Source of the DNA: Rotaria sp. | Taxonomy: Eukaryota | Assembly: GCA_905330235.1 (NCBI GenBank) | Contig: CAJNUA010000005.1 | Location: 400,093 to 434,696 of the forward strand | DNA: 34,604 bases | Reading direction: 5' to 3' | In this document: positions 1-28,613 of the stretch, in pieces | Layout of the letters: each line of letters opens with the position of its first letter | Position numbering within the stretch: position 1 is the first letter of the stretch | Notes under the pieces: model-generated | Seen by the model: the letters and a program-made list of their open reading frames with translations, nothing else | Database searches by the model: none | What the model was told of the DNA's origin: nothing | Position numbers and translations under genes: made by a program

Positions 1-1089
1 ACGAATATATAGTAAATAATTTACCTTTAGAACGAAATATACTTATTTTTAGAAAAAAATCTCTCAAACAGTTTTGATATTATTCAATGAATAGCAATAA
101 CATATATATATATATTTGTTTTTTAGATTTTACTTTCACTTTATCGAGTTTCTATTGCATTCTACTATGACATTTATAAATAACATAGTGACTAATGGAT
201 TTTGTTGCTTGAAAAACAAGAAAAAAAATCTTTTTTTTTTTGCTGTTTTTCTCTTTTTCTTTCTCTAAATGTCTTGTCATATTTTGCCTATCATCGGAAT
301 GATGATTATCGTCATTTCAACCGTGCTCAATCTCGGCCGACATGCTACCATCAAAAAAAAAAAGAAACACCCACGACTTCTCATTGTCAATAGTTGCAAG
401 AACAGAAATATCGAAAAACAAATTATGTTTTTTCGGCCTAATCTCTACGATGTTCTAATAAAAAAAAGAAATCTGTAATCTAATAACTGAATTGTCTAGC
501 TACTATTGCAAGGAAAACCTTCTTAGTTAAACCACGAATACACGCATTTTTGATAGAAGGAAATGATAGTTCATCATTAGAAGAAAACGAGGAAGAAGAA
601 AAAAAATATAGAGATGAAGAGAGAGAAAAAAGCGAGCGACAAAAAAAGAAAATAACATGATGCTCATTGTGATAGGAATAGAATTGAGATAAAGAAACGG
701 GAACAAACATCACCCGTGGAAAACAAACATTCGATCAACAAGCTCGTAAGTTAATGCTAAATAACTATTGACAAAAAACTTAATTGAGAAGAAAATTTTA
801 TAATCAATAGAAGAAGAATAAAATGGCATAAAAAGACAATGCTGTTTTTCCTTTCTAAATAACTCATGAATAATGTTATCTTTCTAGAATATTTAACCAC
901 TTTTTTTTTCTATTCGCTTACCCTACTTCAATTAACTTCCTTTTTCCTAAAATAAGAGACATCCGGTTGAAAGATACTATTCGTTCGGATATGTAAAAAA
1001 GAAAATACAAAAGAAGATATAGATTGCTATTTTTATTTTGTTCATGAATATTTTCGATGTTCATATATATGACGTATTCATTTTAGAAA

Positions 1090-3113
1090 ATGGTGGTACA
1101 TCTTGGTGGTCTTGCAGCCGTTGTTTTTTTTTATGTTCTTATTTTACTTGTTGGAATATGGGCTGGACGAAAACAAAAATCATCGGAAAAGTCACCCGAT
1201 ACAGAAGAGATTATGTTAGCAGGAAGGAATATTGGTTTACTGGTTGGGATATTTACAATGACAGCAACATGGGTTGGTGGTGCATATATTAATGGTACTG
1301 CTGAACAAGTTTTTTCTACGGGTCTTCTTGCATGTCAAGCGCCATTAGGTTATGCTATTAGTTTAGTTGTTGGTGGATTATTGTTTGCACGACCAATGCG
1401 TAATGCAGGATATGTTACAATGCTTGACCCATTTCAGCGTAAATATGGTCAACGAATGGGTGGATTATTATTTATACCGGCATTATTAGGAGAAGTATTT
1501 TGGTCAGCAGCTATTCTATCAGCACTGGGTGCAACAATTAGTGTTATTTTTACGGATGTTTCAACGGTAGCATCAATCATTATATCAGGTAAAATATTTA
1601 AGAAAATAATATTTAAAAAAAATTGAATTATTTTGATATATTTAGCAACTGTGGTTATTGTTTATACTCTTTTTGGTGGATTGTATTCAGTAGCTTATAC
1701 TGATGTTGTTCAACTTGGATTTATTTTTGTTGGTCTTTGGGTAACTATTCCATTTGCTATGAAACATGAAGGCGTCGGTAGTATTGTTGCTACGTGGCCT
1801 GAATGGCGTGGACGTATAGAAAAATCTCAAATAGTTGAATGGATTGATAGTATGTTATTATTAATTTTTGGCGGAATACCATGGCAGGTAAAATATAATG
1901 TGATTTTTTCTTATTTACAATAGAGAAAAGTCTCTTCATTTTTAATTTATTAATAATATTTCGTGTAAGAAACAGTGTGAAAATCTAAATTGAATTTTGA
2001 CAACTTTTTGTTTAGTTAATAATTGGCTTTTATCTTGTCTTGTTGCTTGTTTTAGGTCTATTTTCAGCGCGTTCTCTCAGCTAGATCAGCTAAGAAAGCA
2101 ATGTATCTTTCATTTTATGCTGCTGTTGGTTGTATCATATTGGCAATACCGCCTGTACTAATTGGAGCTATTGCTAAATCTACTAGTCTGTCTAGATTTT
2201 ATACTGGTTCAACTTATATTTATACATCTATTCTATTTGTTTTAGATTGGACTATGACAGATTACGATATAAATAAAGATATAACAGCACCTGAAGCAAC
2301 GAAACTAATTTTGCCATTAGTTCTTTTACATTTATGCCCAAAATTTATTGCATTTATTGGATTAGGCGCTGTATCTGCTGCAGTTATGTCAAGTGCTGAT
2401 TCGAGTGTACTTAGTGCTAGTTCTATGTTTGCTCGAAATGTCTGGAAACTTGTTTTTCGTGATCAAGTATATGATTTATTAATCTTGATTATTTAAAAAA
2501 AAGAAATTTTTCTTTTTCTTTTTATTTAAAATAGGCATCTGAACGAGAAGTTTTACTAGTAATGCGTATTGGAATACTTCTGGTTGGAATAGGAGCTGCT
2601 GGCATTGGCATTCTTGTATCTTCAATTTATATCCTTTGGTATTTATGTTCAGATCTTGTTTATGTCATACTGTTTCCACAATTACTTTGTGTTGTTTATG
2701 TTCCACATTCAAATACATATGGTTCATTAGCAGCATATATAACAGGTTTTCTTTTTCGTATTCTTATTGGTGAATCATCATTAGGAATTCCAAAATTCAT
2801 TAATTTTGGTCCATATATTCCACCGAAAACTTTATGTATGCTTATAAGTCTTGGAACAACATTAATTATTTCTCAAATAGCTAAAAGTCTTTTTGAAAAA
2901 CGTACTTTACCACCAAAATATGATATATTTCATTGTCTTGTTGATATACCAAATGAAACTTTACCATTAAAAGAAAGTTCAACAACAGATGAATTACAGT
3001 ATAAAGTTATTAAACCAACAACAGGACAACAATATTTAACTGAACCAACAATGATGATTAATAATTCTTTTTCACAAAGTCAAGAAATTTTAAATTCATA
3101 TGGAAAAGATTAA
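1090..3113 (+). CDS. CHT1: High-affinity choline transporter (SLC5A7/CHT1 family), complete CDS: join(1090..1588,1646..1887,2056..2466,2535..3113), 576 aa
   Basis: The spliced translation [26 protein letters not shown]...[31 protein letters not shown]...[14 protein letters not shown]...GGIPWQ|[15 protein letters not shown]...[22 protein letters not shown]... aligns along its whole length with the human CHT1 landmarks ([76 protein letters not shown]). All three introns have GT..AG boundaries (gtaaaat..tttag, gtaaaat..tttag, gtatat..aatag). Exon phases are consistent (499+242+411+579 = 1731 nt) and the CDS ends in TAA. Confidence 0.9.
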
Positions 3114-3627: not shown

Positions 3628-5016
3628 TTATTTAGCGATGTCATTTGTATTTGATAGTAGATTATTATGATGATTTAACATCCAATTATATATCTTATAT
3701 GATATATGTAATTTATCCTTTGTAGCTTGCCGATCAAGTAATATTTTAAGTAATGATTGTTTTGGCTCATCAATATATTTTGTTATCCATCTAAAATATG
3801 ATCAAGGAAAAAAAAATATTTAAAACATATTTAAAAAGAAAAATATACTAACCTTAAAACATCATTCTCTGATCGACCGAAATCATTTCTATACCAAAGA
3901 AACAATTTCGGTAAACGAATTTCATTATTTTCTGGTATAATATCAACTTCTGAATTACAATAAGATGTTGTTGCCATATTTAAAGCTTTTTCGATATTGG
4001 TTGATGAATAAATAGCTATTTGTGGACATGAACGTGCACCACGATTAATGGTAAAATGGATACGTGGATCACAACGACGCATGGAATATTTTGCACGAGG
4101 ATCATTAAATGTAAAGTGCCGTTGAGTACAATAGGAATGCGGTTTATTACCTACAAAAAAAAACAGAAAAACCAATTTAAGAAAATCTCTAATCAATTTC
4201 AAATTGAACCTCGTAAAATGCCATGTTCAATATCATCTAATGAATAAATATGTGCACCAACTTTATATGATGTTGTTTTCCAAAATTGATTTAAATCAAG
4301 AACAGATTTTGGAATATCAGTTAATGATACAATGCCATGAATTGTTAATACATTGTAAAGATCTTAGAAAGACAAAAACAAACGATGACAACAATTCTTT
4401 TTGTTTTCTGTAGTAAATATATTATTTATTGTGATAATTACTGATAAATAATGTTTTACGTTCATTTTCTGTGACATTGTCAAGACTAATTGTTGTCAAA
4501 TGTTTCGTTATTTCGCATAAATCATTATAAATATTACTTGTACGTAATTGATAATAGTTAACTAGACGACCAGATGGATCGATAAACATGGATTTTAGAC
4601 TAAAATAGCAAGAAATATAAAGAAAACGAACAATAAAACAATATGTTCTATTTATTTTACTTTAACATTTTCTTCTGTAATTCAATTGAAAATTGTACAG
4701 TATTATAAACATTTTTTGTTTTTAATTCATTTTCATCTTTTACTGTTGTTCCTTCCGTCATTGTTGATTTACTCATAGTTAAATTTTCTAATTGTGACCA
4801 ATTAAGTACATTTAGTAAATGCGTATTTTCAATTTCTTCAGAAGATGTTGTCGAACACATTCCATTGACTACTTTGATCCGGTCTAATTTGATCGTAGAC
4901 AAAAAAAAATAAACAAAATAACCGTCAATGACATCAACAATAAAGTAAAATAAATGTTGTTTTTCTTTTTTATTCCCCTGATTGTGGTTCATTAAACAGC
5001 ACTCTCGTCGACACAA
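3628..5016 (-). CDS. DUF547 (PF04784) domain protein, 6 exons: complement(join(3628..3790,3853..4150,4210..4362,4442..4599,4661..4883,4923..5016)), ~362 aa
   Basis: The spliced product ...KTLFI|NLYNVLTIHGIV...YKVGAHIYSLDDIEHGILRG|NKPHSYCTQRHFTFNDPRAKYSMRRCDPRIHFTINRGARSCPQIAIYS...LPKLFLWYRNDFG matches the DUF547 consensus (fwiNvYNalv.H..., sl.dIEh.iLR, dpRihfAlncGs.SCP). Introns of 38, 61, 79, 59 and 62 nt all have GT/AG boundaries and consistent phases, and the total of 1089 nt is 363 codons. The 5' end (ATG at 5016) is the first in-frame ATG; exon 1 (4923..5016) is the least certain. Confidence 0.7.
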
Positions 5017-9698: not shown

Positions 9699-10354
9699 TT
9701 TACAATCAAGAAGAACAGAAAGAAAAAGAAAACGATTGATGATGCTGTTTAGCGGCATCTTACTATGGACACAAGAATGCATGATTTGCATATCGTATCG
9801 ATTTCAACAGTGTAGAGAACAATGTAATGTGAGATTTCTTTTATAATTACTTTCAGATAGATGATCAGAACGAATATACAATAACGAAAAACTCATTCAT
9901 CGAATAGATTATCTTTTTTTCAAATTTACAATATTTATTGACTAATATAATCAATAGCAGTGACTGATTATTGATTCAATATAGTTTATTAATGCATTGA
10001 TCCATATGATTTGTTATAACATTTTCTTCAACTCTAAAAAGTGTACACATATGACATCCAACGAATAGAAATTATTAAGTTGTCGAAGATTGTACGATGA
10101 TGTAAAAGTTTTGGTTGGTGAAATCTACATGGCCAGCCATTGATCACTCGCACATGGGAAAGATTCGAATTAAAAAGTGAAGAAAGCCAACGAGAAAACC
10201 TCTTCAGATGTCAAATCGATTTTCAACCGAGACAATGTTCATTTGATGAGTACTAGTGATTAATAGAAAAATGTAGAATAGTTTGGTTTTTGGGGCTTTA
10301 TTCTTCAGATATCGAAATTTTACTTTTTTTTTTAACAAAAAGCTCTGATCCATG

Positions 10355-10656
10355 TCAGGTCAGCTGGAAAGTCGACTTTCGAGTTTCGACTTCAAACTTT
10401 GCACAAAGCACTTAATGAGATTCGTTGATTGTACAATTTTTATCTTTTTTAGTATTTTCTTTTTGGAGATATATATATATATATATATATAAACATAATT
10501 TGTTCTAACCTATGAGAGGATTTGGAATATGCAATATCTCAGAATCGGAGATACTAGAATAACTATAACTTGTTCAATTAATTAATCTCACTGAGAACTT
10601 TGTTCGCGCAAAGTTTGATGTCAAAATTCGAAAGTCAATTTTCTACATGACCTGAA
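10355..10656. mobile_element. Foldback / MITE-like element: imperfect inverted-repeat arms (10355..10418 and 10588..10656, ~78% identical over ~65 bp) flanking a ~170-bp loop that contains (AT)11 at 10469..10490
   Basis: The left arm caggtcagctggaaagtcgactttcgagtttcgacttcaaactttgcacaaagcac matches the reverse complement of the right arm (caggtcatgtagaaaattgactttcgaattttgacatcaaactttgcgcgaacaaag). No ORF is present. The same arm family recurs at 22725..23065. Confidence 0.6.
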
Positions 10657-13600
10657 GGGCACCACAACTTTTTGTTTAAAAATCCCAGTAAAATTTCGAT
10701 ATCTCAAGAACGAAGGCCCGGTAAACCAAATTATTTTAGTTTTTCTATTACTCAATAGTACTCATTAAATGAGCATCGTCTCGATCAAAAAGAGACTTGA
10801 CACCTAGAGAAATTCTTTCGTGAATGTATCATTGAAAATTAGAACGATCTGCAATATTTGAAATGGAAGTGGTTCTATTCACCAACAGAATTGAATTCTG
10901 TGAAAACGTGAAATCTTTCTTAGAGTGAACAACTCGAAAATCAGTTTGTGTAAAAGGCAGTAGTAGAACACATTGTCAAACAACGACTGATCAAGAGGGA
11001 AAAAATCTTCAATCAGTTATTAATCGATCGGATACGAAGTACTCTTTCAACATATAACCTTCGTATAAATGTTAGATGTTCATGAACCAAGATGAAGTGT
11101 TCAAAAGCCATCTCTATTTTGTAACGGAAATCGTTTGTAGTATATTTTGCTCGTTTATATTGGCAATTTCCGCAACAAAAATTACGCCTCCAGATAGAGT
11201 TAAACAAGCTCCATCGAACACACCCATTTCGAGTGTATCTTGATTAGATCATTAAACGCTTTACATTGTTTTTTTTCAAAAGTATGCACATATTTGGAGT
11301 GAGCATCGAATTCTGAACAAAATAGAGTGTTTAGCTAATCAAAACTTAAGCTTTTATTTTTCTCAAAAGTTCTTCGAGTCGAAAAAGCTTGAGTATATTG
11401 TTTTTGTTTGATTCTAGTGAAAAACACATCATTTGATGTAGAATTCGATGGTGGTGACGAATAGCTAGTTCCTTTCAACTTTTTTGCTTTCATGCTGATT
11501 CAAGATACGATTTTTAGAAAAACAATGAAATTCTGTAACGCACACTATTTTTAGTTTTTTTTTCTATGTAGTTATGCTTTTTAAAAAATGGACTGATATT
11601 CTAAAAGCTTGTTAAAAACTGAACAACTTTATTATAGAAAGTTTATTTGTATGTTGTTTCGTTTTGTAGTAAAATGTTAAACTGTTAGTCCCGCTGTAAA
11701 AATTCCATTTTTTTAAAATTTTATAACAGCCGATATTTTATAAAGAGCTCAATTCGAGCTACAGAAAAATCAATGAAATTTTCTACTGATAGTAGATCTA
11801 AATGGTTTCTATCTATAATAAAAGTTTCAAAGACTTTGTTTTTGATTTAGACGAGAAATAGATGTTACAATCTTACAAAAATGAAACTCCGTAACACTTG
11901 GCGACACCGAGTTTGCTTTTTTTTCGATTTATGCATTGCTTCAATACAGCAGATCAATTTTCTGGTGTCAAGGAATTACATTTCTTTGAGTTTTTGTAAT
12001 ATTTTTAGCTGCATAATAGATTCAAAATAAGCTTCTTTTTCCAAATGATAAAGATCTAAAGAAAGTTCGGCACTGTTCAATAGCTTATTGCCCTTACCTA
12101 TGAGGTTTCTTCAATTAGCATAACGACTTATTCTATGATGAATACAGAGTTCTAATTTTCTTCTTTCTAAAAATATGATCCTGATATCCGTGTGGTTTTT
12201 TTCGAGATAAAAAAAACTAATCTGCACTGTTAGTAATAAAAGTCGTATTGATAGTAGATTGCTCTTTTTGCTAAAACTTGAAACGACTGTAGTCATCACA
12301 GGGTGTCCAAACGACGACGATCAATGACACAGTACTAAAAATTTTTCTTCATGATGTTCGGCTTTTCTGATAATCAAAAGAGTTTGTCGTATACATTGCC
12401 ACCTGATTGGACTGTTGTATCTTTGATGTATTGGAAGAAGACTGTACGTCTATAGGACGTAAACTGATCACTTTCAATTAGATTATTTTTATCTATATCC
12501 AAGGATGGGATAATAAAAATACAGTAAAGTCTCTATTCTCTGAACCCTATTGAGACCAATCAAAAGTGTCCACTCTAGAGAGTTGAAGCATGATTTGGTG
12601 TGAAATAAAGAAAAAATTTCAGAAAATCTGCTTCTATAATTGCCATAGATAAAGGCCTAACTGTCCATTCTCTTTTTCATCTATCTTCATCGGAATGATT
12701 TGAATTGAAAGATTTTTCAAGTAAAACACAAAATACAATTGTTTTTAAAAAGAATCTTCTAATTTTGTTTGTCTTTTTGCTGTTGAACTAAGTTTTTTGT
12801 ACCTTGTTGTACAAACTATTCGTACACTTGATTGTCTAGTTTTTGTATATTGACACGTTTTTATTTTCGTCTAACATTTTGATTCTGATTGATTTCGTAA
12901 TCATTTCAATATTCTATTTTATGTTTTAAAATATTTGATGCAGAGCTGAGTGAGATATAATATATGTTTTTTCATTCAATTTATGTTATAATATACTATT
13001 ACCATCGTTATTATCATGAATGAATAGTATTTTTTTTCTTGCAAAGTAAGTTTGCGTCGTGATATCATTCTTTACTTTACACATATAGCAGTCGAATCTT
13101 ACACAAAATCCATTTACCCATAGTGTATACCAAACAGGTGACAAAAAAAGAGAAGGATGTCACAAAAACATATTCACATTAGAGATTATAATAGCAAAAG
13201 AGACTACATAACTGTTCACATTAAAGAGAGGCATTTACAGCAAAATCGCTCTATCGGACCCAAAACCGTTCATAACTAGAAGATGTTTATTTTAGAGAAG
13301 TATTCAATAGTAGAGGTTTTACAATATATGCAGACTTTAGTAATTGTTTCCAAGGATAATTTTCATGTGAATAGAATAAATAATTTTCTTTCTGATAAGT
13401 TATTTAACTGAGTCTCTTAAACATCAATAATGTTTTTATCTCTCATCTTAATATGAATACTGAAAATAACATCACGTTCTCCTCTAACTTTCGAGTCTGT
13501 GCTAATATTTCTAATCACCAAATACCTATAGAATTCTACGTATTCTATCGATATGTTGAAAACTAAATAAAGAAATACTAATATTTTTTATTTGCCTTTG

Positions 13601-13854: not shown

Positions 13855-14467
13855 CTATTCAGCACGTTTATACCAGCGACGAGCTGTGACATTACCAGCT
13901 TTCATATCCTAGAAGTATATAAGAAAATAAGATAAACTTTATTTTCAACAAAAAAAAAAAAAAGAAATAAACGTACAATTTGCTGTTGTCCTTGAGCATC
14001 AACATAACGTACGATTGTAGATTCTTTACCATGTTTATCACGCATTGTATGAACCCATTTATCATTTTCAAATTTGATAACCGACTATTGAAATAAACAA
14101 AAACAAAGATAATGTTTATATTTTCTAGATAAGACATTCGACTAACTTTAACAACTTCACCATCGAGACGAGTTTCATCGAATTCAACACCAGGTGTAAA
14201 TTCATAGTGTGCCGATTTAAGTGTTGATTCACTTTTAAGCGACCATTTACCGTTATTTTCGCCAATAATTAATTTTGGTTTAATCAATTTAGCTGATTGA
14301 CGAAGAGCAAAACCGACACCCTTTTAGAAAATTAATAAATATTTAATATATAAATATTCGAAATAAGAGAATTTTCTTACAATTTCTTTCATATAATCAT
14401 CGAAATGTTCACCATCAACATATTCCCAAGTACCTTGAAGTTTTTCAATACCGCTACCAGCTGCCAT
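13855..14467 (-). CDS. Fatty-acid-binding protein (FABP/lipocalin-type cytosolic FABP), complete CDS: complement(join(13855..13908,13977..14084,14147..14320,14381..14467)), 140 aa
   Basis: The spliced product MAAGSGIEKLQGTWEYVDGEHFDDYMKEI|GVGFALRQSAKLIKPKLIIGENNGKWSLKSESTLKSAHYEFTPGVEFDETRLDGEVVK|SVIKFENDKWVHTMRDKHGKESTIVRYVDAQGQQQI|DMKAGNVTARRWYKRAE* carries the FABP signature (G.W......NFD.YMK.LGV.F..R, F.LGEEFDE.T.DGR.VKS). It has the classic 4-exon FABP gene structure. Introns of 60, 62 and 68 nt all have GT/AG boundaries and are all phase 0. Confidence 0.9.
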
Positions 14468-15240: not shown

Positions 15241-15909
15241 TTAATTATTAATATGAAAAAGTGCATATTGAATAAACTTTTCCCACGATGAATAATTCAA
15301 TTCTAATTGTTCACAATAAATTCCATAACATAAACGTTTTTGCTCGTAAAAATGAATTACTTTATCAACATTTTCTAATAAAGTTTTCGGTAAATGACGA
15401 TAAAGAATTGACTTGAAATTTAAAAAAATTTAGAAAAAGAATAAAAATCTCACAATTTCTTACTCGAATTTGTTCACTATCAAATGGAACTAAAAATATA
15501 TTTCTTTCCGACACAGGTACTTGTAATAATAGTTCAAGAAGAATGATACCCGTAGCAATCAAATGGATTATATCATTTTGTATATTTAATGCTGAAAAAA
15601 AAATAAATTCGTTTGTTGTTTTTTTTACGTTCCAATAAAAACAAATAATTTCATCTTACCAAAAGAACTAAAACCTTGTTTATTTAAATATATTTTAAGT
15701 TCATCAAAATCTCTCATACTAAGAGATAATAAATTAGCTAAATCTTGATTTAAATCAAATGACCCATTTGTTAATTGAATTCTTTTTAATTCATTTATCA
15801 TCATCGAAGTTAAGTCGATTTGTTTCAATTTATTAAATGTTGAAAAACCTTGAAAATGTTCTGGTTCATCAGTAAAATTAACTTTTTCATTTGTAGTTTC
15901 ACCTTTAAG
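15241..15909 (-). CDS. Putative nuclear-receptor ligand-binding-domain-like protein, partial (the 5' exons and any DNA-binding domain were not found): complement(join(15241..15411,15464..15591,15660..15909))
   Basis: Three exons splice in frame through GT/AG introns (gtaag..tttcag, gtaaga..ttcaag). The product ...DELKIYLNKQGFSSF|GALNIQNDIIHLIATGIILLELLLQVPVSERNIFLVPFDSEQIR|SILYRHL... resembles the NR LBD signature region (FAK.IPGFSSL..DDQ..LL....E.L.L....RS), but similarity is moderate. Only ~180 aa were recovered. The most upstream exon starts at an acceptor (tttttag|ctt), so the gene continues 5' of 15909. Confidence 0.35.
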
Positions 15910-16859
15910 CTAAAAATTAAAATGAAAAGGATTTTGTTGTTTTTAAAAGAGAAATCATGAGACTATCGAGTATACGAGGCGCTCAATAAAAAAAGAAAAA
16001 CAAAACAATTTTCCCTTCTTTTGTGTATTCATTACAACGATGTCTAAAACTACCAATCCCAAAATTTTAACTGCCAACAACATTTCTTTGAAAAGTTAGT
16101 CAATAGCGACCTTTTATCACTATCATACCCTTATGAAAAAAAAATAAAAACTTTCTTTTAAAAATCGAACTCGTTTCCACAAATTATTGGAATTTTTTAT
16201 AAATTTTCCGACGAGTATAAAACGTCCACTTGATAACAATCTGTCTCCGATCGAAATCAGCAATCAAAATCGAATCGAGTTATTTGACAATTCGATTCAA
16301 CAGCAATTTCTTTAGTAATCTTCAAACACGAACAACAAAATTCACGTCAATATAGGGTTCATGCTCTTTGTGTCTTGTACTTGTGCAAAGTGTATCAATC
16401 TCTTGGTATGAGAAGTCTACTGCTATTCATTTCGAAATATCATGAATATAAACTCGGTTTCGCCCCGAACATACCATGTATTATTGAATAATCAGTTACC
16501 ATGTTCTAGCGAATAAAAAAAATCTTTGATCCTGCATCCCGGTAGAAAGTAGATTATTATAAAGTGGATATTTTAAATTCGTCAATTAAACTATTTTTCA
16601 TTGTTGTTGACCGTATAAAACTAGTCTCAGTTAAACATTGTATTATTATTTTGAAATAAGTCATTTTGTTCAATTTTTACTTTTCTATCTTTTAATATAA
16701 TTTATGAAAAAACTCGAATCATTCGTCCAAACAAGTACGACTTTTGCAAGACTTTTTCTATTACTTTTTTTCATAAGGATATGATGGTTGTAAAAGTTGA
16801 TATTGACTATATTTCAAAAATGAAAGCTATTGAAAACTAAAATGTTGGAGTTCATGTGG

Positions 16860-18775
16860 TCAGATGTCGACGCATTGAATGCACAAAAAAAATTCTTTTT
16901 CTTTTATTAAATAGCTCATATAAGTCGAGTATCTCATAATGGCTTTCTTAATAATTTTACAAACCATATATAGTGAATCATTGGGTCCTCGATCATGAAC
17001 ACATGCAGCACGAAAATCTGGGTTACTTTCTACATATGAAAGATGTCGTTCAATATCATTTGTGTTATGTAGATCTATATAATAAATAGAAAATAACTCA
17101 GAAAATTTTCATTTTAATTAAGAAATATCCTTACAATCATTTTTTGAATTAATTACAAATTTGGTTTTAGCACCTGATCGTGATTCTTCAGCTTCAACTT
17201 GTACGAAACCATTGCAATCAATATCCATAACAATTGATATTTCTAATGTTTGTGAAGCAAAATTTGGTGTTAAACCTGTAAGTGTAAATTCACCAAGAAA
17301 TATCTAAAAAAGCAACAAAATGAATTAACATAATAAATTTTGATTTGATATATTTTAAACTAACATTATATTTTGTAAGTTTATGTTCTCCACTGAAAAC
17401 GCGAATTGAAGCTGTTGTTTGATAAGCATAAGCATTTGTAAATACAGGATAAAATTGTGTTCGAAATGGCATTGTTGTATTACGCCTAATAATTATACAC
17501 ATGTGACCATTAATGTCTTCAATACCTAAACTGAGTGGTGTAACATCAAGTAATAAAACACACTCTTCGTCAGTTTTATGAGCTGACTTAGGTTTTCCTT
17601 TCATCCTAAAATGCAGTCAAATTTATGTTATTGAGTACAGTTAATGCCTATTATTTCAAAGTCGTACTTCTTTAATAACATCGAATCTGTCTTGGCAGAT
17701 AATTCACATGCAAATTCTCTGGAACTTGACCTGACTATTGGCATTACCGTTTGTTCATCGCATCGTGTCTACAATGAGTAATAATTTATGCAGATGATCT
17801 AAGCTTAACTCTATCTGTACATACATCAGTATACCGTCCCCATGACTCAGAAGCTTTATGGATGACATGTTTAGCTTCTGAAGCTGACTTTAATTGGTTT
17901 GCAATATCGGAAAATTTATGTTGTTTCGATTTTTGACTCGTTAAAGTGCAGAAATCCATTTTGTTGTGTAGTTTACTTGATTGCTCAACAGTTCTCCCCG
18001 GATAAATAGATTCATTTTCTTCAACAGTTGAGCACGGTTCATATGATTCTGTTCGGATTTTATCAACATCTGATAACATTTCCATTGATTCACCAGATCC
18101 ACCGAATGAAAACAATAATTGTGACTCCGATGATGTGCTGCTAAATGGTAATGCTCCTGTTGTTGTTGGTGGTGGAGGAGGTGGAGGTGGAGGTGGAGGA
18201 GGAGCAAGAAAAGATGGTCGTGGTGGTAGTTGTGAAGGCACAGCAGAAAATATTGCTGAACCGTCATATTCTTTGGGCGCGAAAGTAGCATTCATGCTAT
18301 TACTATTGTAGTTGACGTTACTTCCAAATGTGAATGCATGTGATGCAGAAAAAGGAGCTGATGATTGAAAACCGAAAGTTGAAGGTATTGTTGAAACATT
18401 CAATACTTGGGAGCCGAAAGAAGCGTTGGTCGTAATGCTAGATGTGAATGGATTGAACGCCAATGGTGAGGTATGAGAAGGAGGTGGTAATGTTGCAGTG
18501 GTGGTAATGGTAGTATCAGTAGTAGTCTGATACCCTACTGGAACATTAAGCCCTGAAAACATTGGATAAACATTGTTAGTGTTGATGACATTGCCTGGGC
18601 GCGAAAATAATGATGTTGTAGTTGGAGCCCAGCTTGAGTGAATCATTTGAGGCGTTTGTGGTGCAAACGTTTCCTCATTCAACATGCAAATACTCTGTGG
18701 GGAAACAGATGAATCTAATATTGTCACTTGTTGCTGTTGTTGTTGTTGCTGTTGAATTGGTGCAGAAAAAAGCAT
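16860..18775 (-). CDS. Protein with a Q/P/FG-rich disordered N-terminal region fused to an Hsp70 substrate-binding domain (SBD-beta) homologue and no nucleotide-binding domain: complement(join(16860..17074,17135..17303,17365..17605,17835..18775)), ~521 aa
   Basis: Exon 1 (941 nt) is low-complexity: polyQ(11), PPPPPPPPPPPP, and SFGSQ/TFGFQ/TFGSN repeats. Exons 2-3 encode ...[124 protein letters not shown]. This aligns with Hsp70 SBD-beta ([105 protein letters not shown]). The donor choice cg|gtatac at 17834 is the only one that keeps the frame. The first in-frame ATG is at 18775, and an upstream AG acceptor at 18880 sits in the same frame. Confidence 0.65.
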
Positions 18776-18980
18776 CGGTAAATCATTCAAACTATATTGT
18801 TGTTGTTTTCCTTGTAGTCGATGAACAGAAGAAGTGTACTGGTTATTTTGAGCTTTTCCCCTTGACTTGCTACATGTTTCTGAAAAAAGGATTGATTACA
18901 ATTCATAACAAATCGTTGCCATTTTAAGGACAATCTCAAAGCATCTTTTGAAAATAATAAACATCAAAAGTTATCGATAA

Positions 18981-21900
18981 TTATTTTATCTGAACATAGG
19001 TCTCGATGTGGTAGGAGTTAAGATCGGTTAGCTGCCTTCTCCTACTGTCTTCATCATATCTATGAAAATGCTGAACTGTAGTGGGAAAATTGTCCGCCAA
19101 ACTTTCAGTTCTTTCCACTTCTAAAAACTATCGAAACTCTTGTATTTGGATATAAAATATATCTTATTGAAAATTTTTACCTGTTGCAGATGAAATTTCA
19201 TGAGCAAAAAGATTCATATCAAAGTCACACGACTTTTCTTGAACCGGCGCCTTTTTCAAGCGAACTTTTGACAAAACTGGAGATGCTATCTTCTTTTTTG
19301 AATATTCTTTCACTTCTTGATTTGTTTCTTTTTGTTTTCCAGTTTTCTTTGTATGATACACCATAGATTTCATCTCTTCGTAAGGAGAAGGACCAAAATC
19401 AAGTTCATGAGAATTGATTTCTTCTTGTTCTTCATCATAGGACAACGCAAAAGATTTTCTGTTACTGGGAGTAACAGTAATTTCTAGTTTCTTAGATGTT
19501 GTGTTCGCCTCTGTCAGCGGTTCATAGCCATCGAAGAGACAAAAACCCATATCCTCATCATTTTCTTCACTCTCTGCGTCTTTTACTTGTTTACTTTCAC
19601 TACGTTCTAGTCTACATTCATCAACTTCTCCGAAAACATATAAAATATAAAAATATTTAAAATTATGTTTTGAGTAAAGTAAATTTACCTATCAAATCCG
19701 ACCTTAAACATGTGGAACTGGATTGTACTTCATCTACATCAAAGTCACATGAAAACATTTTGCCATTATTCCTCTAGAGTTGATTCAAACGATTTTTCAT
19801 TCATGCTATAGAATTAACTTACAAATAGTTCACCGACAAACTCACCGCGTCCGTTACGATAATCGCCACGACCACCTTCGCCACCGTAATACATTTCATC
19901 ATCATCAACCGGTAACTCTTCTTCTTTTTCTTTTTCTTCCCCTTCTTCATATTCTTCCTCTTCTGTAAAAGTTGTACGTCGATGTTCTACATCTTCTCTA
20001 ATAAAAATATAATCGCAATAATATACATATTCTGCATATTCAACTTACAATATTTCAGCTTTCATACGCATATCAATTTCATCAAATCGTTTTTCTAATA
20101 TTTTTCTTTCATCAGTTGTTGCATTTTTTATTTCATTAATTAAATCTATTAATATTCATTGGGTATTAACTAATAATTTTAAGAAAAATTTTATATTTAC
20201 CTTTCTGCATATTTTCTTCTAATTCTCGAGCTTTTTCTTTTTGCTTAAATGTTATTCGATATGTATCAATAATTGCTACCATTAAGTTATATTTTGCATC
20301 ACCACCAGAACGATATGATATATTCTGACAAAGACTTTCATATTCATTTAATAACTCAACTTTATTTGATATTGAAGCACTATCAAATAAACGTTTTCCA
20401 TTAATTAATTTATCTTTAATTATATCAATTTGTGATCGATCACCGTCCCAACCAATGTATGGAAGTAAATCAATATCATTTTCAAGCATAACATCAAGTA
20501 ATCGAACACCTGGTTCAAGTGCTTGTCCATCACGTTCTTCAATAGCTACAAAACTTGTAAATGAACTCACAACAGAATATTTCATACTAAGTTCAATTAA
20601 ATCTTGTTTATATTTCTTTTTAATAAGTTCATTTTCACATTCATCATTATGTAATAAACCATTTTCATAATCTTGAATAATTGCACGAGCTGTTAAACAA
20701 TGTAATATACGGCCTTTTGTGTCAGTTATTTTATTACTAAATACGGTGGTAACATACTCTTGATTATTTATTGTCGCTGTTAATGTTGCTTTATGACAAT
20801 TCTGTATAAAACGATATGCAGTTAAGCGCATACCATTAAATAATGATCGAATTATATTTGGTGCTTGACTAGTAAATTTTTCTTGTTGATCATCAATTCT
20901 TCCATGCCAATCAATGGATACATTTGTTATACATGGTTGACCAATATGTTCAAGTATTTGAAGTACTTTTGTTTTCCATCTTGAACGATAATTTGAATCA
21001 AATATAGTTGTTAAACCACCACCATTCATCTCATTAGCTAATTGTCTTAAATTATGTTTATTAGATGTATCACCAATTGAACATGTAAATAAACGATCAT
21101 GGCGCATTGATGATTGATTTTTTAATAATGTTAAAATAGATTGGAGATCATTGATATGCCCATCTGAAAGAAGAATAAATTGTCGACCAAGTTTAGATGA
21201 GGATGGTAAAAGAGAATATTGACGAAGTACAGAAAATAGATCAGTATTACCACGATGATCAAGTGAATGCTATAACAGATATAGACTTAAATATATTAAA
21301 AAAAGAAGAAACAATACAAACCAAAACAAAATGCTTAGCTTTATCAATATTTTCTTTTGTATTTTGTGATGCAATAGGAAAACATTCATCATTATCTAAA
21401 ATAAATAAATTAATGAAAAATAAAATATAAAAATATTTTTCTGGATTTACCTGATCCAAACGTAACAATATTAAAGAAAATATTTCTATCAGTTTTCATA
21501 TTCGTCAAAAATAAATGTGTTAACTGTTTTGCTTGTTGTACATGCTTTCCATCCATAGAATTTGATACATCAATAATAAAAATAATTTCCACATATTCAT
21601 TTGAATTATTAGCTATTTCAAATTTTGGATAAAATGTTAACATACATGCTTGACAATTTTCATCAATCGATTGATTATTAGTATTTGTATCAGATGGCGC
21701 ATATGTTTCATTTAACATGCGTGGTAAATTAACACTTTTTAATGTTATTGAAAGAATAAAATCTTTTTCAAATAAAATATTATCAACAAGTTCAATCATA
21801 GCAAGACAATCAGTTATTTTTCGACGAAGTCGATGTGTAGGTGAAAATAATTTTGTTATTTCGTATGGCATACGTATTGATGTTTTGAGACTAAATTCAA

Positions 21901-24900
21901 CTGATTTCATTGAAGAATTATCTTGTTCAAGATTAATTGACGGAAGTATTGTTTGATCTTTCATTTGTAAAGCTTGTTTTGATTGCCATGAAGCTACTTT
22001 AGCTGGCAAACGAAATATAATATCATTACTTTCAATAGATAATTCAGCAACATATGTGATTTTAATAATCACTTCACAATTAGCTGGTAAATTACCAACC
22101 GATACACTGAATACTTCAGGTTGTTCTTGATGCATTAAATATGCGCCATGACCTTTTTCAATAGCTTCACGATATTCACGTTTAGCTTGTTCTTTTTCTT
22201 TAACAACACCTTTAATTATTTTATTATTAATATGAGCTTCAAAACCACAAACCGAAGAATTTTCATCCAGAGGAAATACATATTTTGCTTCAATTGGTAC
22301 TGAACTTGAATTATGATAAACTTGATAAAGAACAACCTAAAATAATTTATAAAAGGTGTTTTGTTTTTACAGAAAAGAAAATTATTTAATTTACTTCAGC
22401 AGTAACATCAACAAGTTGTGCACGAATATGAAAAGCTTTCAGTGGAACAAGTTCACCTGACGATGGACAAACTAAACCATAGTCTTGTTCTGCTACTTGA
22501 ATTACTTCATCTTCGATTGTTGAAGGAATATCTACTGAAATAAATATATACATGTATGATAACTACTTTATCGACTGCAATACTAACGAAGGAACGCTTC
22601 TAAGTGTCAAATCGTTTTTGAATCGGGACGACGTGGATCATATAGGCTCTAATCCACTATGAATACTCTGAAAAGAGTTCAGACTAACAGCTTATTACAA
22701 CTGAGATATTGTATTTTTTAGTAGAATTCCGTGATCGCTCTTAGAAATACTAGAAAAACTAAGTTTTGAATTTTGATTTGAAACTTTACATGAAAACAAG
22801 CCCTAATGAGAATAGTTTATTGTAAAAGTTTGAGATCTTTTGATTATTTCTATCCTAAGATACGGCTATTGTAGTAAAAGCATGTTTTTCACGCAGCTCA
22901 TATACGTCGACGTATTCCAATGTTCTTATTTCAAAATAGATGCAATCGAAAAATCTGAAACTTTCACAATAAACTATTCCCATTAAGGCTTGTCTGTGTG
23001 CAAAGTTTCAAATTGAAATTCAAAGCTCAGTTTTTCTAGTGTTCATGAGAGAGCCACAGTATTCTGCTAAGAAATTCGGTAAAAATATAGTATCTCGACA
23101 GCAATTAGCTTTTAGTCCAAATTCTTTTTCAGGTATTTGTATCTCATTAGAGCCTACACGATACACCTATTCTCGATTCAAAAGCAGTTTGACAGTTATA
23201 AACGTTCCTTCATTAGTTTAAATCATTTTCTTTATAATATTGCTGGAGATTGCTCAATCGAAAATATATAAATGGTTAATGAATTACAGAGATATTGACC
23301 AGAAGTTGCTCTTGTAACGTTATATCTAACCGTGACCCATTTATCAAAGAGTCACTGTATGAGAGTCACGCATCGATTCTACTGAACTGAAAATTTCAAA
23401 CTTTTGTTCACATTTGCGCATAGGCCTAACTGTAGTTTTTAAGAGAAAATATGTGAAGGAATTCTATCGCGCTAATCTAAAGAAAAGTTATCTACATGAT
23501 GAAGTGCTCTAAAGCCACTCTATACACCTTTGTAACAGACTTTTTTCAGACCAGTACGTTGAAACTGTTTGAAACATTTTTCTCCGAAGACTAATCACGT
23601 AAATTTATCTGGATACGTAAGCAAATGTTTGAGATCTTCAATTGAGCTGAAGCATTCATGAGTCTCATTTCATAATTCATGTCAACTGTTTATAGAGAAG
23701 TTGAACGGTTACCGATATTTATTTAAAATACCAGATATATTTGAACTTATTCTATTAATAGTATATAATACATCTTCATTGCATCAAAAGGGAGCTATAT
23801 TTCTGAAGAGTCAGTCTTTACTCTCAGCTGATCTCCATCTTTATGTGTCGTTCTTGTTATCACCTTCAACTAATTATCTGCCTTCAACTTAGTTTCTTTC
23901 ATTTGGTAGTAACATAAGTAATGAGATTTAGAGAAAAATCTAAGAAATCCCTAAAAAAACTACTCTTGGAAGCTGTTACTATGAGGATGACAAACGTCTT
24001 ATCTAGGGATCAATATATTACGATAAAGATTTATCGAAGAGAATCGACACGAAATTAAGACGAAATATGAATGCTGTTATATATTATGACTTATCTGTGA
24101 TTTGGTTAGAAAAACCTGATTACCTTCATCTGACAGTGATTTTGACTGATTTGTTACAGAATCACGAATAATAGGTACTAATTTTGGTGATTGATCCGTA
24201 TTGTCATATGGTATCCATGAAAGTTCAACAAGATAAAGTAATCGTTGTTGATCAAGATTATAAATAGCATATTCATCATCCTAAATAAACATTATAATAG
24301 AAATCTGATCGAAAACATGACTTATTCCTTACAATAAACTTTGAATTATTTTCATCATTTTTTTTTACTCCATGTGTACTATGAAAATTTTCAGGCGGCT
24401 GTGTTAAATTTGGTGAATATGAATAGAATGTAGCAGAATCTCCTAATGCTACTTGAGATATACATAATAATCGTCTACCAGGACGTGTTATACTTGGTGT
24501 TGTATATTTTAATGATGTTGAAACTGAATCAGAAAAATAAAGTCCATATCCTAAGCACCCAATATCAGTACGTGCAACTCCTAAATCATTAGCAACTACT
24601 TTTGGCATAAGAAGACCACTAAAAAGAAAATTAAAAAAAAATTGAATATAAAATTAAAAAGGACGATTGTTTTGTTTTGGATCGATTTACCGTGATAAAA
24701 TACCAAGAAAATTATTATATTTTGATCCATGAAAAAGTTGTTTTTGATTATACAGTGTTGAACAAAAATTCAATGCATCTGTTTGTTTAGCTACACTATA
24801 TATTTGATGAATAATTACTTGTTCATTTCTGCAAAAATATAAAATTTTTGATTTTATTTTGGTAATTACAAACAACAACAAAATACGAACACATTCGTTG

Positions 24901-26464
24901 ATGAAGAAATCATATTACTAATTGTTCCATATTCATGCGTATCATTTTTTATGGCTTCTATATGGCATTTCAATGCTCGATATTTTGCTTCGATTGATGC
25001 TTTTATATTCCAATTTGTTAATTCATTTACAGTAATCATATCGCGTAGCATCTAAATTGTGAAAAAGAAAGACTAGAAAAAGAAAAAAAAAGATGAAAAT
25101 AGAATTTCTACCTGACATAAGTCTAATTTATCAATTAATGCACGACGATTATTAACAAGATCGACAACAAATGATTTTTGATGAGGAATAAGTGAATAGA
25201 AACGAGTTTCTGCTTCTGATGATGATTTACTATCAGATTTGATATCAAGTAAAGCAGCTTCTGCTTCAATAATCTAATAACAATATGAAAAAAAACAATA
25301 AACAAATTGTTTTTTATATATGTTTCTTCCTACTGTTTTAAGAGCAATTGCCTCTGGTTGTACAGAAAGTATTTTATTTAAATCGCCAATTGATTCAATC
25401 CAAAGAGATTCAACTAACTGACAAACATTATCGTCAAGCATTTGTGTATCGATTCGATGAAGAAATAGTGACTATAGATTAATAGAAATTTTTTCTCGAG
25501 CAAAAAAGGATTTTATGTTTATCTTACACGTAATAATAATTTAGAACTTAATTTATCAGGTAATAAATCACGAATTCGTATTATTCGTGGCATTGTTGCA
25601 ATACGATTATAATATGAAGCATATAATTGATGTAATTCACTAATATCATTACTAAATGCATATTGAATTAAAGTTATTTTACCTTTTGAAGTTGTTATTG
25701 TTTGTTTTTCATAACGAAATCTTAATTGGTAATCATTGCTTATTTGATTATTATATTCTTCTGGAATAATTTGAAGTTCAAGAGAAAAATAAACATCAGA
25801 ATTTTCATTTGTTTCCTATTTTACAAGAAAATAAATAAACAATAAATTTATTTCTCAACAAATACGTATTTACTTTAAAAATTGCCCATTTGCCAATTTC
25901 AGCATGTGTCAATTCATCAAATCGTGGTATTTCAACATCGTCAGAATTCCAAATTTTTATTTTTGATAAATCTAACTTGACAGGTTTTATTGTACTACTT
26001 GAAGGATTTCCTCCACCTATGAGAGAGAAAAAAGATAGTAATCATTTATGTTTCAATGAAATCAGTTTATTAACCTGTAACAGGTATAGTACCACTTTTT
26101 GAAAAATTTTCTTTATCTTCTGCTGACGTTACAATAAATCGTTTAATATCAATAGATGCAGTTTCATTAGACGATTTACGATATTCATAAATATATTCAA
26201 CATTTACTAATGGTATACCAAGCTGTTTAGCTCGACGAGTTTTATATGTATCAATATCATTGGAAACCAAAACATAATCAGTCTAGGGAAAAATTAATTT
26301 AATTATATTTAAATATAATATTAATCAAAACATACACTAGCTGTCAAAATATATGAGATACGAGCGTTTTGTTCATGTAAATAGTTAATAAGTTCTTGTT
26401 TAGCTTTGAAACGAATATCTCGACCAAGCTCAAGTACAAATGTTTTACCACATAATGGTAACAT
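18981..26464 (-). CDS. PARP4: Vault poly(ADP-ribose) polymerase (PARP4/vPARP-like), complete 19-exon CDS, ~1645 aa: complement(join(18981..19120,19181..19627,19689..19773,19823..19997,20049..20145,20201..21269,21328..21395,21451..22336,22395..22534,24124..24280,24333..24618,24691..24828,24870..25051,25112..25273,25334..25471,25528..25815,25874..26016,26075..26282,26336..26464))
   Basis: The domain order matches human PARP4: BRCT (MLPLCGKTFVLELG...VNVEYIYEY), a WGR-like exon, the PARP regulatory helical domain (FYSLIPH...LDLCQMLRDMITV...EAKYRALKCHIEAIKNDTHEY), the PARP catalytic domain (LFHGSKYNNFLGILSRGLLMPKVVANDLGVARTDIGCLGYGLYFSDSVSTSLKYT...LLCISQVALG) and VIT (GELVPLKAF...VPIEAKYVFPLDENSSVCGFEAHINNK...EYREAIEKGHGAYLMHQEQPEVFSVSVGNLPANCEVIIKITYVAELSI). 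These match human PARP4 strings such as VPIEAKYIFPLDDKAAVCGFEAFINGK, EYLEAVTQGHGAYLMSQDAPDVFTVSVGNLPPKAKVLIKITYITELSI, FYRLIPH and LLHGSPVQNIVGILCRGLLLPKVVEDRGVQRTDVGNLGSGIYFSDSLSTSIKYS. A vWA domain follows (IIFIIDVSNSMDG..., ...RLFTCSIGDTSNKHNLRQLANEMNGGG...) and then the conserved segment LHCLTARAIIQDYENGLLHNDE...FTSFVAIEERD (human: IHKLAARALIRDYEDGILHENE...FTSFVAVEKRDE). All 18 introns are GT..AG. Their phases sum to 4938 nt, exactly 1646 codons. Seventeen introns are 41-72 nt and one (22535..24123) is ~1.6 kb. The last two exons (3' of 19181) are the least certain. Confidence 0.85.
22535..24123 (-). other. Long (~1.59 kb) phase-1 intron of the PARP4 gene, lying between the catalytic-domain exon and the first VIT exon and carrying a nested foldback element
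   Basis: The donor gaa g|gtaatc at 24123 and the acceptor tatttcag|ta at 22535 give the in-frame junction ...SLSDE|VDIPSTIEDEVIQVAEQDYGLVCPSSGELVPLK. This reproduces the human PARP4 linker between the catalytic domain and VIT. The interval has no long ORFs and contains inverted repeats. Confidence 0.75.
22725..23065. mobile_element. Foldback / MITE-like element inside the PARP4 long intron, with arms 22725..22816 and 22981..23065 (~80% identical over ~85 bp, inverted)
   Basis: The reverse complement of 22725-22816 (cattagggcttgttttcatgtaaagtttcaaatcaaaattcaaaacttagtttttctagtatttctaagagcgatcac) matches 22981-23065 (cattaaggcttgtctgtgtgcaaagtttcaaattgaaattcaaagctcagtttttctagtgttcatgagagagccac). 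The arm sequence is related to the arms of the 10355..10656 element (gcaaagttt..a..ttcgaa/caaa...tttctac). Confidence 0.65.
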
Positions 26465-26912: not shown

Positions 26913-28613
26913 ATCAATTACTACTGAATACATAGGCCGGATATCTTTCAGCATTATAAATACGACTTATTTGTAGCAACATATATCCAATTTCTGGATC
27001 ATTTAAATAAGTTGTGATTGTACTGGGATCTTCATATAAATGAAGCATAACTAAATTAAAAATTTTCATTAAAATAATACGAATTATTAAAAATAAAAAA
27101 TCTACCTAAAAATATCCTTGGTTTATTAAGTGCTCGTTGAACAATTGAGTTTTCCATAATAGCTTGAAACATACTTGAATTTAGATCAAGACTTTGTTCA
27201 TTAATAGCACCAATAATATTTTTTTGTTCTTCATCAACAATAAGATATTCACACTAAAAAAATTTACAGATAAATATCAGTGAAAAATAAGAATTTTTTT
27301 CATACAGCTAAACTTTCATTATTATGATATATTCGTAAAGCATTTATTATATCATCATGATTGAAACCCATTTCTTTTAATGATTGAATGGCCTATTTAA
27401 AAAAAAAAAACGAAAGGATTTTTTTCAATTAAGCATAATTGTCTTTTACTGAGGGATTTGGTTGAAAACATTGCTTTCGAAATTGTCGAAATGGTATAAA
27501 TGGACCGTAACGTGAATAGATGGATTTTGTTTGATTCAAGTTTTTCGATCCTTTCTCATCATGATCAGTATCTTCTTGGCTTGAAAGTAATTTCATAGCA
27601 GCATTTAAATCATACCTTAGAAAAAAACGTATTGAAATTATATAAAAATAATTTTCTTCTGTAATTTTTTTCTAACTTCGTTCGTTCAAGTGCTTGTTGT
27701 GCTTGCTGTTCAGTAAAGCCCATATGAACTAGTTTCTCGACTTGATTTGGATGTATCTCTGTATGGTTTGATTCTGTTCTCGATGATCTTGAAAGAATTT
27801 CTATGGAATACAACAAGTGAGAAAAAAACAAACGAATTTTAATTAAGAAAACAATATACCTTCAGCTTCCTTAAAGATATGTTCAGCATCTGGACAATAC
27901 CAAAGTAATTTATGTGATGCCTCAACCAATGTAAATAGTACACGACTAAGATCAGTACGAAACTAAATATTATGAATTTATTTTTTTCTTTGGGAGGAGG
28001 GAGGGGTACAATTAAGAATTGAATATTACTTCTGTTCTTCCCGCTAAACGTTGAGATTGAGAAAGTGAATGTGTAGGTAATGGAAGAGCTTGTGTTCGAT
28101 ATTCGATTAAATCCTGATTTATAGAAGAACGTTCGAATGTCTATATAGTCAAATATATATAGATTTTGAAGGATGCAGTTCTGTCGTTATACTTGTTTAG
28201 CTTGCAATGATTGTGGAGGAACTTTTGTTGTTAGAAGATATTCATCTAGAAAAAAATTTTCATGAAGAATAAATCAATATTTCTTGACGAATAATCTAAC
28301 CTCCATCTTTAACACATTCTTGACCTAGCGTTTTCTGTTCGTCCATAATTTTTCTTGTTTCAATCGATATTAATATATAATTATCCATTTCATTCATTCG
28401 CATGTCACGCATTGAATGATCATAACTCGATAAATGGCCATTACTATTCCTTAATAAAAATCCCTTAGCTAAATATTTAACATATGCAAATGTTGTGTTC
28501 TCAACCGGAAATATATCTTGAAACATTGCACCAGTTTTTGACCAAATTTTTAGCATAACATGTTTTGATTGATTATCACGAATATCGAATATTGCACTTG
28601 CTGTTTCTGTCAT
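26913..28613 (-). CDS. Double-UBA-domain protein with a C-terminal STI1/DP-like motif (ubiquilin/NUB1-like architecture), multi-exon (~11 exons). Confidently placed exons include 28301..28613 (exon 1) and 27677..27800 (UBA1); the stop codon is near 26913
   Basis: The exons splice in frame. UBA1 reads ...HPNQVEKLVHMGFTEQQAQQALERTK and UBA2 reads AIQSLKEMGFNHDDIINALRIYHNNESLA. The C-terminal exons encode ...SMFQAIMENSIVQRALNKPRIFL|VMLHLYEDPSTITTYLNDPEIGYMLLQISRIYNAERYPAYVFSSN*, which is DP/STI1-like. The N-terminal exon starts MTETASAIFDIRDNQSKHVMLKIW... and may be a UBL-like fold, but this is weak. The intermediate exon boundaries were traced but not all were indexed precisely. Confidence 0.55.

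Follow-up and report, generated by a model that had tools for sequence, protein, structure and literature searches.

Does the vault PARP (PARP4) gene in this rotifer DNA end where its first description stopped, and does the coding sequence beyond that point belong to it? The window, by which we mean the whole stretch of 34,604 nucleotides taken from Rotaria sp. contig CAJNUA010000005.1, carries a PARP4-like gene on its minus strand. An earlier note had placed this gene at 18981-26464 and had called it complete, with all human PARP4 domains in order. Our comparisons identify the locus as a bdelloid-rotifer PARP4/vault PARP orthologue, and its transcription unit, as far as can be judged from sequence, most likely continues 3.7 kb past that end, to 15241. 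On this reading the earlier span takes in about the first two thirds of the gene. The added part is predicted to encode an Hsp70-type substrate-binding beta-domain (SBD) and, after it, a helical domain homologous to MINT/MVP-ID, the domain of human PARP4 that interacts with MVP, the major vault protein.

The chain of stop-free segments on the minus strand runs from 26464 to about 19170 of the window. A splice search anchored by homologues joined these segments into a core gene of 19 exons, with the ATG at 26464 and a TAA at 18981-18983 (-), and its product has 1640 amino acids (1645 in the earlier note). All 18 introns are GT-AG; 17 of them are 49-72 nt long and the remaining one has 1589 nt. 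The junction across this long intron, which had been given as 24123/22535, was found at 24124/22534, one nucleotide off. Pfam searches with the exon translations returned BRCT, PARP_reg, PARP catalytic, VIT and vWA in the order that had been described. The coordinates of all features are collected in the table.

The PARP4-like identity of the core agrees with its nearest solved structures: for the catalytic region and for VIT-vWA alike, no solved protein scored better than human PARP4. For the helical and ADP-ribosyltransferase domains (HD and ART), human PARP4 gave E 3e-59, followed by PARP2 (7.5e-19) and PARP1 (1.9e-18). VIT-vWA matched human PARP4 residues 615-1182/1217 with E 6e-124 to 8e-130, and the weak matches were ITIH4 (6e-13) and ITIH1. 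The metal ion-dependent adhesion site (MIDAS) motif DVSNS at 21557-21571 (-) is intact. Overall identity to human PARP4 is 38% in HD+ART and 40% in VIT-vWA. The earlier note had spoken of near-identical stretches of 20-40 residues, but the best windows against the human protein reach 15/20, 21/30 and 29/40, which is 70-75%.

The N-terminal domains are more diverged. BRCT passed the Pfam cut-off in the translation of exons 1-2 and was marginal in the scan of the full-length protein (19.8 bits, under the 21.3 cut-off), and PARP_reg scored 25.4 bits, slightly under its cut-off. For the WGR-like region the results point both ways. Residues 6-293 are collinear with PARP4 N-termini of a coral (E 2e-22) and a bird (E 1e-6), and this aligned part includes the stretch equivalent to the WGR of human PARP4, which was defined structurally (PMC10450202, PMC12212138). 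However, Pfam found no WGR match in the exon translations or in the full-length protein. A phmmer search of the N-terminal 293 amino acids against solved structures also gave no match to the human PARP4 N-terminus at E<=0.01.

In the catalytic domain the motif LFHGS...GYGLYFSD is present as had been noticed, and the triad reads H443-Y483-E554. The earlier note proposed this triad as a test for poly- versus mono-ADP-ribosyltransferases. It is uninformative here, because human PARP4 has H-Y-E and nevertheless performs only mono-ADP-ribosylation, with an altered acceptor site that includes a Thr at the position of PARP1 K903 (PMC10711553). T490 of the rotifer protein aligns with T484 of human PARP4, the residue at this same position. 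By analogy, the shared Thr points to mono-ADP-ribosylation.

The gene as first drawn is probably not complete. The C-terminal MVP-interaction domain of PARP4 is outside 18981-26464 and is encoded downstream. What had been read as a conserved C-terminal block is an acidic linker with a poorly conserved exon behind it. The orthologue in Adineta vaga is annotated as one protein of 2221 amino acids (I4U23_003265), and in tblastn searches the C-terminal parts of this model and of more than six paralogues aligned with the core's strand of the window at 17616..15244. PARP, VIT, vWA and HSP70 stand together in at least ten further bdelloid models, several of which have MVP-ID (PF26156) as well. A splice search guided by bdelloid homologues gave eight further GT-AG exons which join exon 18 to a linker, the SBD and MINT, with introns of 52-68 nt and one of 1055 nt. 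All introns in this full model are GT-AG and it has zero internal stops. Its stop codon is at 15241-15243, and the C-terminal extensions end in ...EQLELNYSSWEKFIQYALFHINN before the stop. In GenBank, model P0001 of the same locus stops at 19164-19166 by reading into intron 18, and the Silwood2 model omits the 12-residue end of exon 9 (VKKNDENNSKFI).

The SBD matches positions 381-510 of the 599 in the Pfam HSP70 profile, with 83-86 bits, and its best solved relative is the SBD of HSC70 (1ckr, E 3e-23). An AlphaFold2 model of an 87%-identical orthologue (P0122) superposed on the SBDs of DnaK, BiP and HSC70 with a root-mean-square deviation of about 3-4 A over about 139 residues (Foldseek E about 1e-10). 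This model is of moderate quality, with a mean predicted local distance difference test score (pLDDT) of 55 and values of 55-68 in the SBD part. The interdomain linker VLLLDV is kept, and so are the pocket equivalents of DnaK I401, F426, Q433 and I438. The start of helix A is also kept (DIERH, compared with EDIERM of cytosolic Hsp70), and the alignment ends within this helix. A two-residue insertion and the motif FTNAYAYQTTA are specific to the family. The nucleotide-binding domain, the alpha-helical lid and the EEVD tail are absent from the region, which has a disordered linker upstream and MINT after it. From sequence and model together, the domain is an Hsp70-type substrate-binding beta-sandwich with a predicted hydrophobic cleft.

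Horizontal transfer from bacteria was considered as the source of the SBD, as metagenomic DnaKs rank after the bdelloid matches, and is not supported: HSC70 scores highest and the DIERH of helix A is of eukaryotic type. Against solved structures the SBD scored 85.8 bits with HSC70, 79.6 with DnaK, 78.2 with BiP and 77.8 with mortalin. An endogenous cytosolic-Hsp70 origin is preferred because the HSC70 score is slightly above the other three.

For the C-terminal end, a search with the single sequence against PDB returned noise only, and a profile was needed. A profile built from eight bdelloid C-termini matched human PARP4 residues 1574-1699 with E 1.1e-5 as the sole significant match. Human MINT/MVP-ID covers residues 1562-1724 and docks PARP4 inside the vault (PMC12280208, PMC10450202). 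The region is helical in the AlphaFold2 model of P0122 (pLDDT 70-93), and bdelloid paralogues carry the precomputed domain PF26156 PARP4_MVP-ID. The pattern LQ..DGS[WF]...G..SL...RLELG..W is also found at the end of PARP4 from fish, bird, coral, sponges and Trichoplax. Since the domain downstream matches the vault-docking MINT/MVP-ID, the span 18981-26464 is without the one domain which makes PARP4 a vault protein.

The question whether core and C-terminal part are one gene depends on the sequence between exon 18 and exon 20. In the window and at two other loci, the Silwood1 orthologue (L003) and a paralogue (L008), a phase-1 donor of exon 18 is followed by a phase-1 acceptor 289-301 nt downstream (289 nt in L003, 298 nt in L008), and the 280 joined codons are stop-free. 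The donor of exon 18 is conserved at both loci, and L003 also keeps the acceptor of exon 20 and its frame. When the window is compared with L003, indels of 11 and 1 nt are seen upstream of the 18880 acceptor, and the indels downstream of it have lengths divisible by three. The large exon 20 has its first ATG at different positions in the window and L003, and the frame upstream of this ATG is open to the acceptor.

Exon 19 of the earlier model falls between this donor and acceptor, and on sequence features it is probably an alternative terminal exon. As a constitutive cassette (donor GACA/GTAGGA at 19046, followed by a 166-nt intron) it would keep the frame, and this form was tried and rejected. 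In L003 the acceptor AG of exon 19 is lost and an in-frame TAG is present, and in L008 the exon is frame-shifted, so the form that skips exon 19 is preferred. Its TAA lies in a nucleotide block of about 29-45 nt at about 18960-19003 (-), which contains ...ACCTATGTTCAGATAAAATAATTATCGATAAC... This block is 100% conserved in L003 amid surroundings of 75% identity, is recognisable in L008 and in another locus (L007), and is absent from A. vaga. The exon-19 peptide and the block are in different frames in L008, and the conservation is at the nucleotide level, not the protein level. The block may be a control element for alternative polyadenylation or for splicing.

We consider it likely that a single long transcription unit of about 2335-2360 codons runs from the core to MINT, an interpretation based on splice sites, open reading frames (ORFs) and comparison with other bdelloid loci. 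At the A. vaga locus (L002, CP075493.1), the annotated intron of 467 nt at 11800-12265 contains an in-frame ORF of 399 nt behind a 68-nt intron of the form GTAAGT...AG, and the 133 extra codons read through stop-free into the next exon. The A. vaga protein I4U23_003265 is thus probably 133 amino acids longer than annotated. In an A. vaga paralogue (P0027), core, linker, SBD and MINT follow one another with gaps of at most 134 nt between mapped exons. The other way to read these data is gene fission, which is possible and, to our judgement, clearly the weaker candidate: the core would end at 18981 or 19164, and linker, SBD and MINT would form a separate gene with its ATG at about 18775. This downstream unit might also be co-transcribed and trans-spliced to a spliced leader at the 18880 acceptor; bdelloids use spliced leaders. 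Fission would agree with GenBank, where the near-identical (99.8%) contig is annotated as two genes of 1587 and 706 amino acids, where L003, L007, L008 and several other bdelloid annotations are split too, and where SBD-MINT models stand alone in several species. An ATG in the large ORF is in its favour too. However, the predicted gene breaks fall after exon 18 at L001, after exon 16 at L003 and after about exon 15 at L007 and L008, and in model P0122 exon 18 is connected to the SBD. Because the breaks differ from locus to locus, they suggest prediction failure in low-complexity sequence and not a real boundary. The position of the ATG differs between the window and L003, both A. vaga loci can be read through across nothing longer than short introns, and every other animal examined (fish, bird, coral, sponge and Trichoplax) has MINT within its PARP4.

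Some observations weigh against one long vault-docked protein. The block around the TAA of exon 19, which holds AATAAA-like hexamers beside the stop codon, is perfectly conserved in the sister species and retained at two paralogue loci, and it could stand for a genuine 3' end. With 301 nt (or 166 nt), the intron at the junction has 3-6 times the length of a usual one, evolution is faster in SBD and MINT than in the core, and a search with the A. vaga junction peptide gave no match in the protein database at E<=0.001, its parent model being missed too. As for docking, S1614 of the MVP-contacting human residues is conserved here, K1618 is replaced by Asn, and Arg1689, which the other examined animals keep, corresponds to a Gln that is invariant in bdelloids. 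With two of three contact residues changed (PMC12280208, PMC10450202), docking is plausible and not assured. The earlier note had taken a vault-bearing animal as the source, which is sound, as A. vaga has several MVP genes (PMC10809525), and had then chosen a flatworm, which can practically be dismissed. Only the composition (about 70% A+T; G+C of the window about 29%) and the short introns speak for a flatworm, and bdelloids share both. Against it, the window and CAJNSZ010000028.1 (GCA_905329745.1, Rotaria sp. Silwood2, Bdelloidea) share 99.78% identity across 25,376 bases, and the order of UBA, PARP4, lipocalin and DUF547 genes is common to three bdelloid loci. All 41 of the best protein clusters are bdelloid (Rotaria and Adineta), the top one with 96% identity overall and 99-100% in most exons. 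After the bdelloids come PARP4 proteins of cnidarians, molluscs and fish, with 33-39% identity over 74-98% of the query, and there are zero flatworm proteins among the best 120 matches. A decaying paralogue or pseudogene is very unlikely as well. The large family (41 bdelloid clusters), the repeats inserted in two introns and a ratio of nonsynonymous to synonymous substitution (dN/dS) of 0.62 in the SBD would be in line with decay. But the 2335-2360 codons have zero stops or frameshifts, splice sites are all canonical, and the catalytic triad and MIDAS are intact. Compared with the A. vaga orthologue, dN/dS is 0.14-0.19 in BRCT-WGR, HD-ART and VIT-vWA (1300 core codons), 0.42 in MINT and about 0.5 in the poorly alignable linkers. 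The C-terminal modules are kept and evolve faster than the core.

Bdelloid annotations cut this family at varying points of the linker, into 'PARP' models of 1366-1587 amino acids and 'HSP70' models of 478-908 amino acids. This inconsistent splitting may affect the published numbers of bdelloid PARP and vWA genes, the radiation-induced sets included. We also observed that the gene is nearer to A. vaga (80% amino acid identity, synonymous divergence about 0.4-0.66) than to Rotaria socialis (75%). Either old paralogues confound the orthology, or the genus label of the Silwood2 assembly is doubtful.

The combination of PARP4 core, Hsp70 SBD and MINT was found in three bdelloid genera and in many paralogues, and in none of the matches inspected outside bdelloids. 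We scanned an SBD+MINT query against 1.84 billion representative proteins, and the full-length matches (E < 1e-90) were bdelloid wherever a source was named. Ten of the weaker matches with two aligned stretches were looked up: two came from Didymodactylos carnosus and eight were ordinary or duplicated Hsp70 family proteins. D. carnosus has PARP, VIT, vWA and HSP70 in one model. Among the best 120 matches, the PARP4s from outside bdelloids have no HSP70 domain on record; monogononts and other relatives were not specifically searched. A literature search found no description of this architecture and no paper combining PARP4 and bdelloid. The core orthologue is ordinary and is already in GenBank as an unnamed prediction, and the corrected architecture is bdelloid-wide and shared by multiple paralogues. 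Some other bdelloid PARP4 paralogues add EF-hand domains (PF13499, PF13405, PF00036), one more case in which this family gained domains in a lineage-specific way.

Ribosomal P-stalk proteins share a universal C-terminal tail, SDDDMGFGLFD. In the acidic linker of exon 18, a closely similar motif EDMGFCLFD is present at 19518-19568 (-), within SEENDEDMGFCLFDGYE, and a weaker copy DFDMNLF is at 19194-19232 (-). At least seven further bdelloid paralogues of PARP4 have the motif as well; a fish PARP4 (Anableps, with PF00428 as a precomputed domain) has two copies of it, and a PARP4-like protein of a sponge has one. A literature search found no paper combining GFGLFD and PARP4.

In the arrangement with one long gene, exon 18 would splice in phase 1 to the acceptor at 18880 and give one long PARP4 mRNA. 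Exon 19 with the TAA block would be either an alternative terminal exon or a site of polyadenylation within the intron, so that a short isoform without MINT would be made beside the long one. By homology with human PARP4, the enzyme would be a mono-ADP-ribosyltransferase, BRCT would bind nucleic acid, and the C-terminal domain would dock the enzyme inside the MVP cage. An Hsp70 beta-domain without ATPase and lid might, speculatively, bind extended hydrophobic peptides without nucleotide control and act as a client-capture module. Put together, bdelloid vault PARP could have been rebuilt with the SBD before the docking domain and a P-stalk mimic, so as to capture unfolded or nascent polypeptides for a mono-ADP-ribosyltransferase inside or at the vault, with the alternative 3' end supplying a free enzyme without MINT; we offer this scheme tentatively and regard it as rather doubtful.

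If it were true, it would connect vaults, whose function is still unknown, with proteostasis in animals able to withstand desiccation and radiation. In A. vaga there are 17 PARP genes and several MVP genes, the latter expressed and radiation-induced, and PARP and MVP genes are induced by desiccation and radiation (PMC10809525). Bdelloid stress papers group these genes as 'PARP' or 'von Willebrand factor'. A client-binding module on PARP4 suggests a testable idea of cargo recruitment in a tractable extremotolerant animal. For the gene in the version of the earlier note, the main value would be in naming the source as a bdelloid rotifer.

Two introns of the gene hold repeats. Intron 10, at whose position about 63 nt separate the mapped exons of the A. 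vaga orthologue, contains an imperfect palindrome of 636 bp, and a second one of about 635 bp is at 10190-10821. Both have arms of about 300 nt that are 71-72% identical, and both share the terminal motif TGTCAAATCG(A/T)TTTT. From these features the two look like one family of foldback elements. The element of 733 bp in the intron between the SBD and MINT exons has terminal inverted repeats of about 56 nt (16087-16142 / 16765-16819) and looks like an insertion of miniature inverted-repeat transposable element type. Rfam and tRNA scans of the window gave no match, Pfam gave no match for ORFs inside the 1589-nt intron, and no MVP gene was found within the window.

Features of the PARP4 locus and its neighbours, in positions of the window
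Feature	Position	Strand	Content or evidence
Proposed full PARP4 unit	15241..26464	-	26 exons when exon 19 is left out (2335 aa), 27 exons when it is included (2360 aa)
Gene of the earlier note, possible short isoform without MINT	18981..26464	-	19 exons; last exon 19120-18981
Exons 1-5	26464-26336, 26282-26075, 26016-25874, 25815-25528, 25471-25334	-	Splice search
Exons 6-10	25273-25112, 25051-24891, 24828-24691, 24618-24333, 24280-24124	-	Splice search
Exons 11-14	22534-22395, 22336-21451, 21395-21322, 21269-20201	-	Splice search
Exons 15-18	20145-20049, 19997-19823, 19773-19689, 19627-19181	-	Splice search
Exon 19 (optional, in full unit)	19120-19046	-	Splice search
Exons 20-23	18879-17825, 17768-17668, 17605-17365, 17303-17135	-	Splice search
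Exons 24-27	17074-16965, 15909-15660, 15591-15464, 15411-15241	-	Splice search
BRCT, residues 3-76	26184..26458	-	Pfam PF00533, E 1.6e-5, 25.5 bits against 21.3 cut-off (exon 1-2 translation)
WGR-like region, residues ~125-235	25591..25981	-	Collinear BLASTP alignment to PARP4 N-termini
HD + ART, residues 256-575	24209..25530	-	phmmer against human PARP4 8sx1, E 3e-59; Pfam PARP 93 bits
Triad codons H443, Y483, E554	24729-24731, 24537-24539, 24272-24274	-	Residue mapping
Intron 10, 1589 nt	22535..24123	-	636-bp imperfect palindrome 22582-23217
ITIH-like region	21021..22442	-	VIT 22052-22442, Pfam 124-128 bits; vWA 21021-21589, VWA_3 56.6 bits
Exon 18, acidic disordered linker	19181..19627	-	Phase-1 donor ACAG/GTAAAA (19181/19180)
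Exon 19 of the earlier model	18981..19120	-	Probable alternative terminal exon, or part of 301-nt intron
Exon 20, Q-, FG/FxF- and Pro-rich disordered linker	17825..18879	-	351 codons; phase-1 acceptor ttttcag/AAACATG (18880/18879)
Hsp70-type SBD, residues 2018-2152	17043..17568	-	Pfam HSP70 and HSC70 SBD match
Long intron between SBD and MINT exons, 1055 nt	15910..16964	-	733-bp element 16087-16819
MINT/MVP-ID-homologous helical domain, residues ~2215-2358	15250..15801, stop 15241-15243	-	Profile match
Sodium:solute symporter	1087-3110	+	Neighbour gene
DUF547 protein	3834-4226	-	Neighbour gene, downstream
Lipocalin/FABP	13895-14323	-	Neighbour gene, downstream
UBA-domain protein	27613-27861	-	Neighbour gene, upstream

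Compared with known systems, the bdelloid gene is nearest to other bdelloid loci, whose GenBank models are unnamed automatic predictions that disagree on the gene end. The 'unnamed protein product' of Rotaria sp. Silwood2 (1587 amino acids) has 96-100% amino acid identity and the same synteny, and stops in intron 18. I4U23_003265 of A. vaga (2221 amino acids) has 80% identity and the same synteny, and its model skips the 133 in-frame codons.

With human and vertebrate PARP4 it has in common the order BRCT, WGR-like region, HD, ART, VIT, vWA, disordered linker and, in the proposed long gene, C-terminal MVP-interaction domain. The H-Y-E triad and the Thr at the PARP1-K903 position are common too, with the 38-40% identity in the catalytic region and VIT-vWA. 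Unlike human PARP4, the bdelloid gene adds the Hsp70-type SBD directly before MINT, its linker is rich in Q, FG and Pro and has the P-stalk-like DMGFxLFD, and its MINT has Asn and Gln for K1618 and R1689. Its BRCT and WGR are much more diverged, and the family is expanded to many paralogues. VWA5A and the ITIH heavy chains share the VIT-vWA core and are without the BRCT-WGR-ART module. VWA5A has an MVP-ID-like helical domain without an equivalent of Arg1689, and its moderate match is the only other human relative of MINT in fold and profile comparisons (PMC10450202). With Hsp70/HSC70 (HSPA8) the bdelloid protein shares the linker VLLLDV, the eight-stranded beta-sandwich and the DnaK-equivalent pocket residues, whereas the nucleotide-binding domain, lid and EEVD belong to HSPA8 only. 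It carries a borrowed domain and is not an Hsp70 chaperone.

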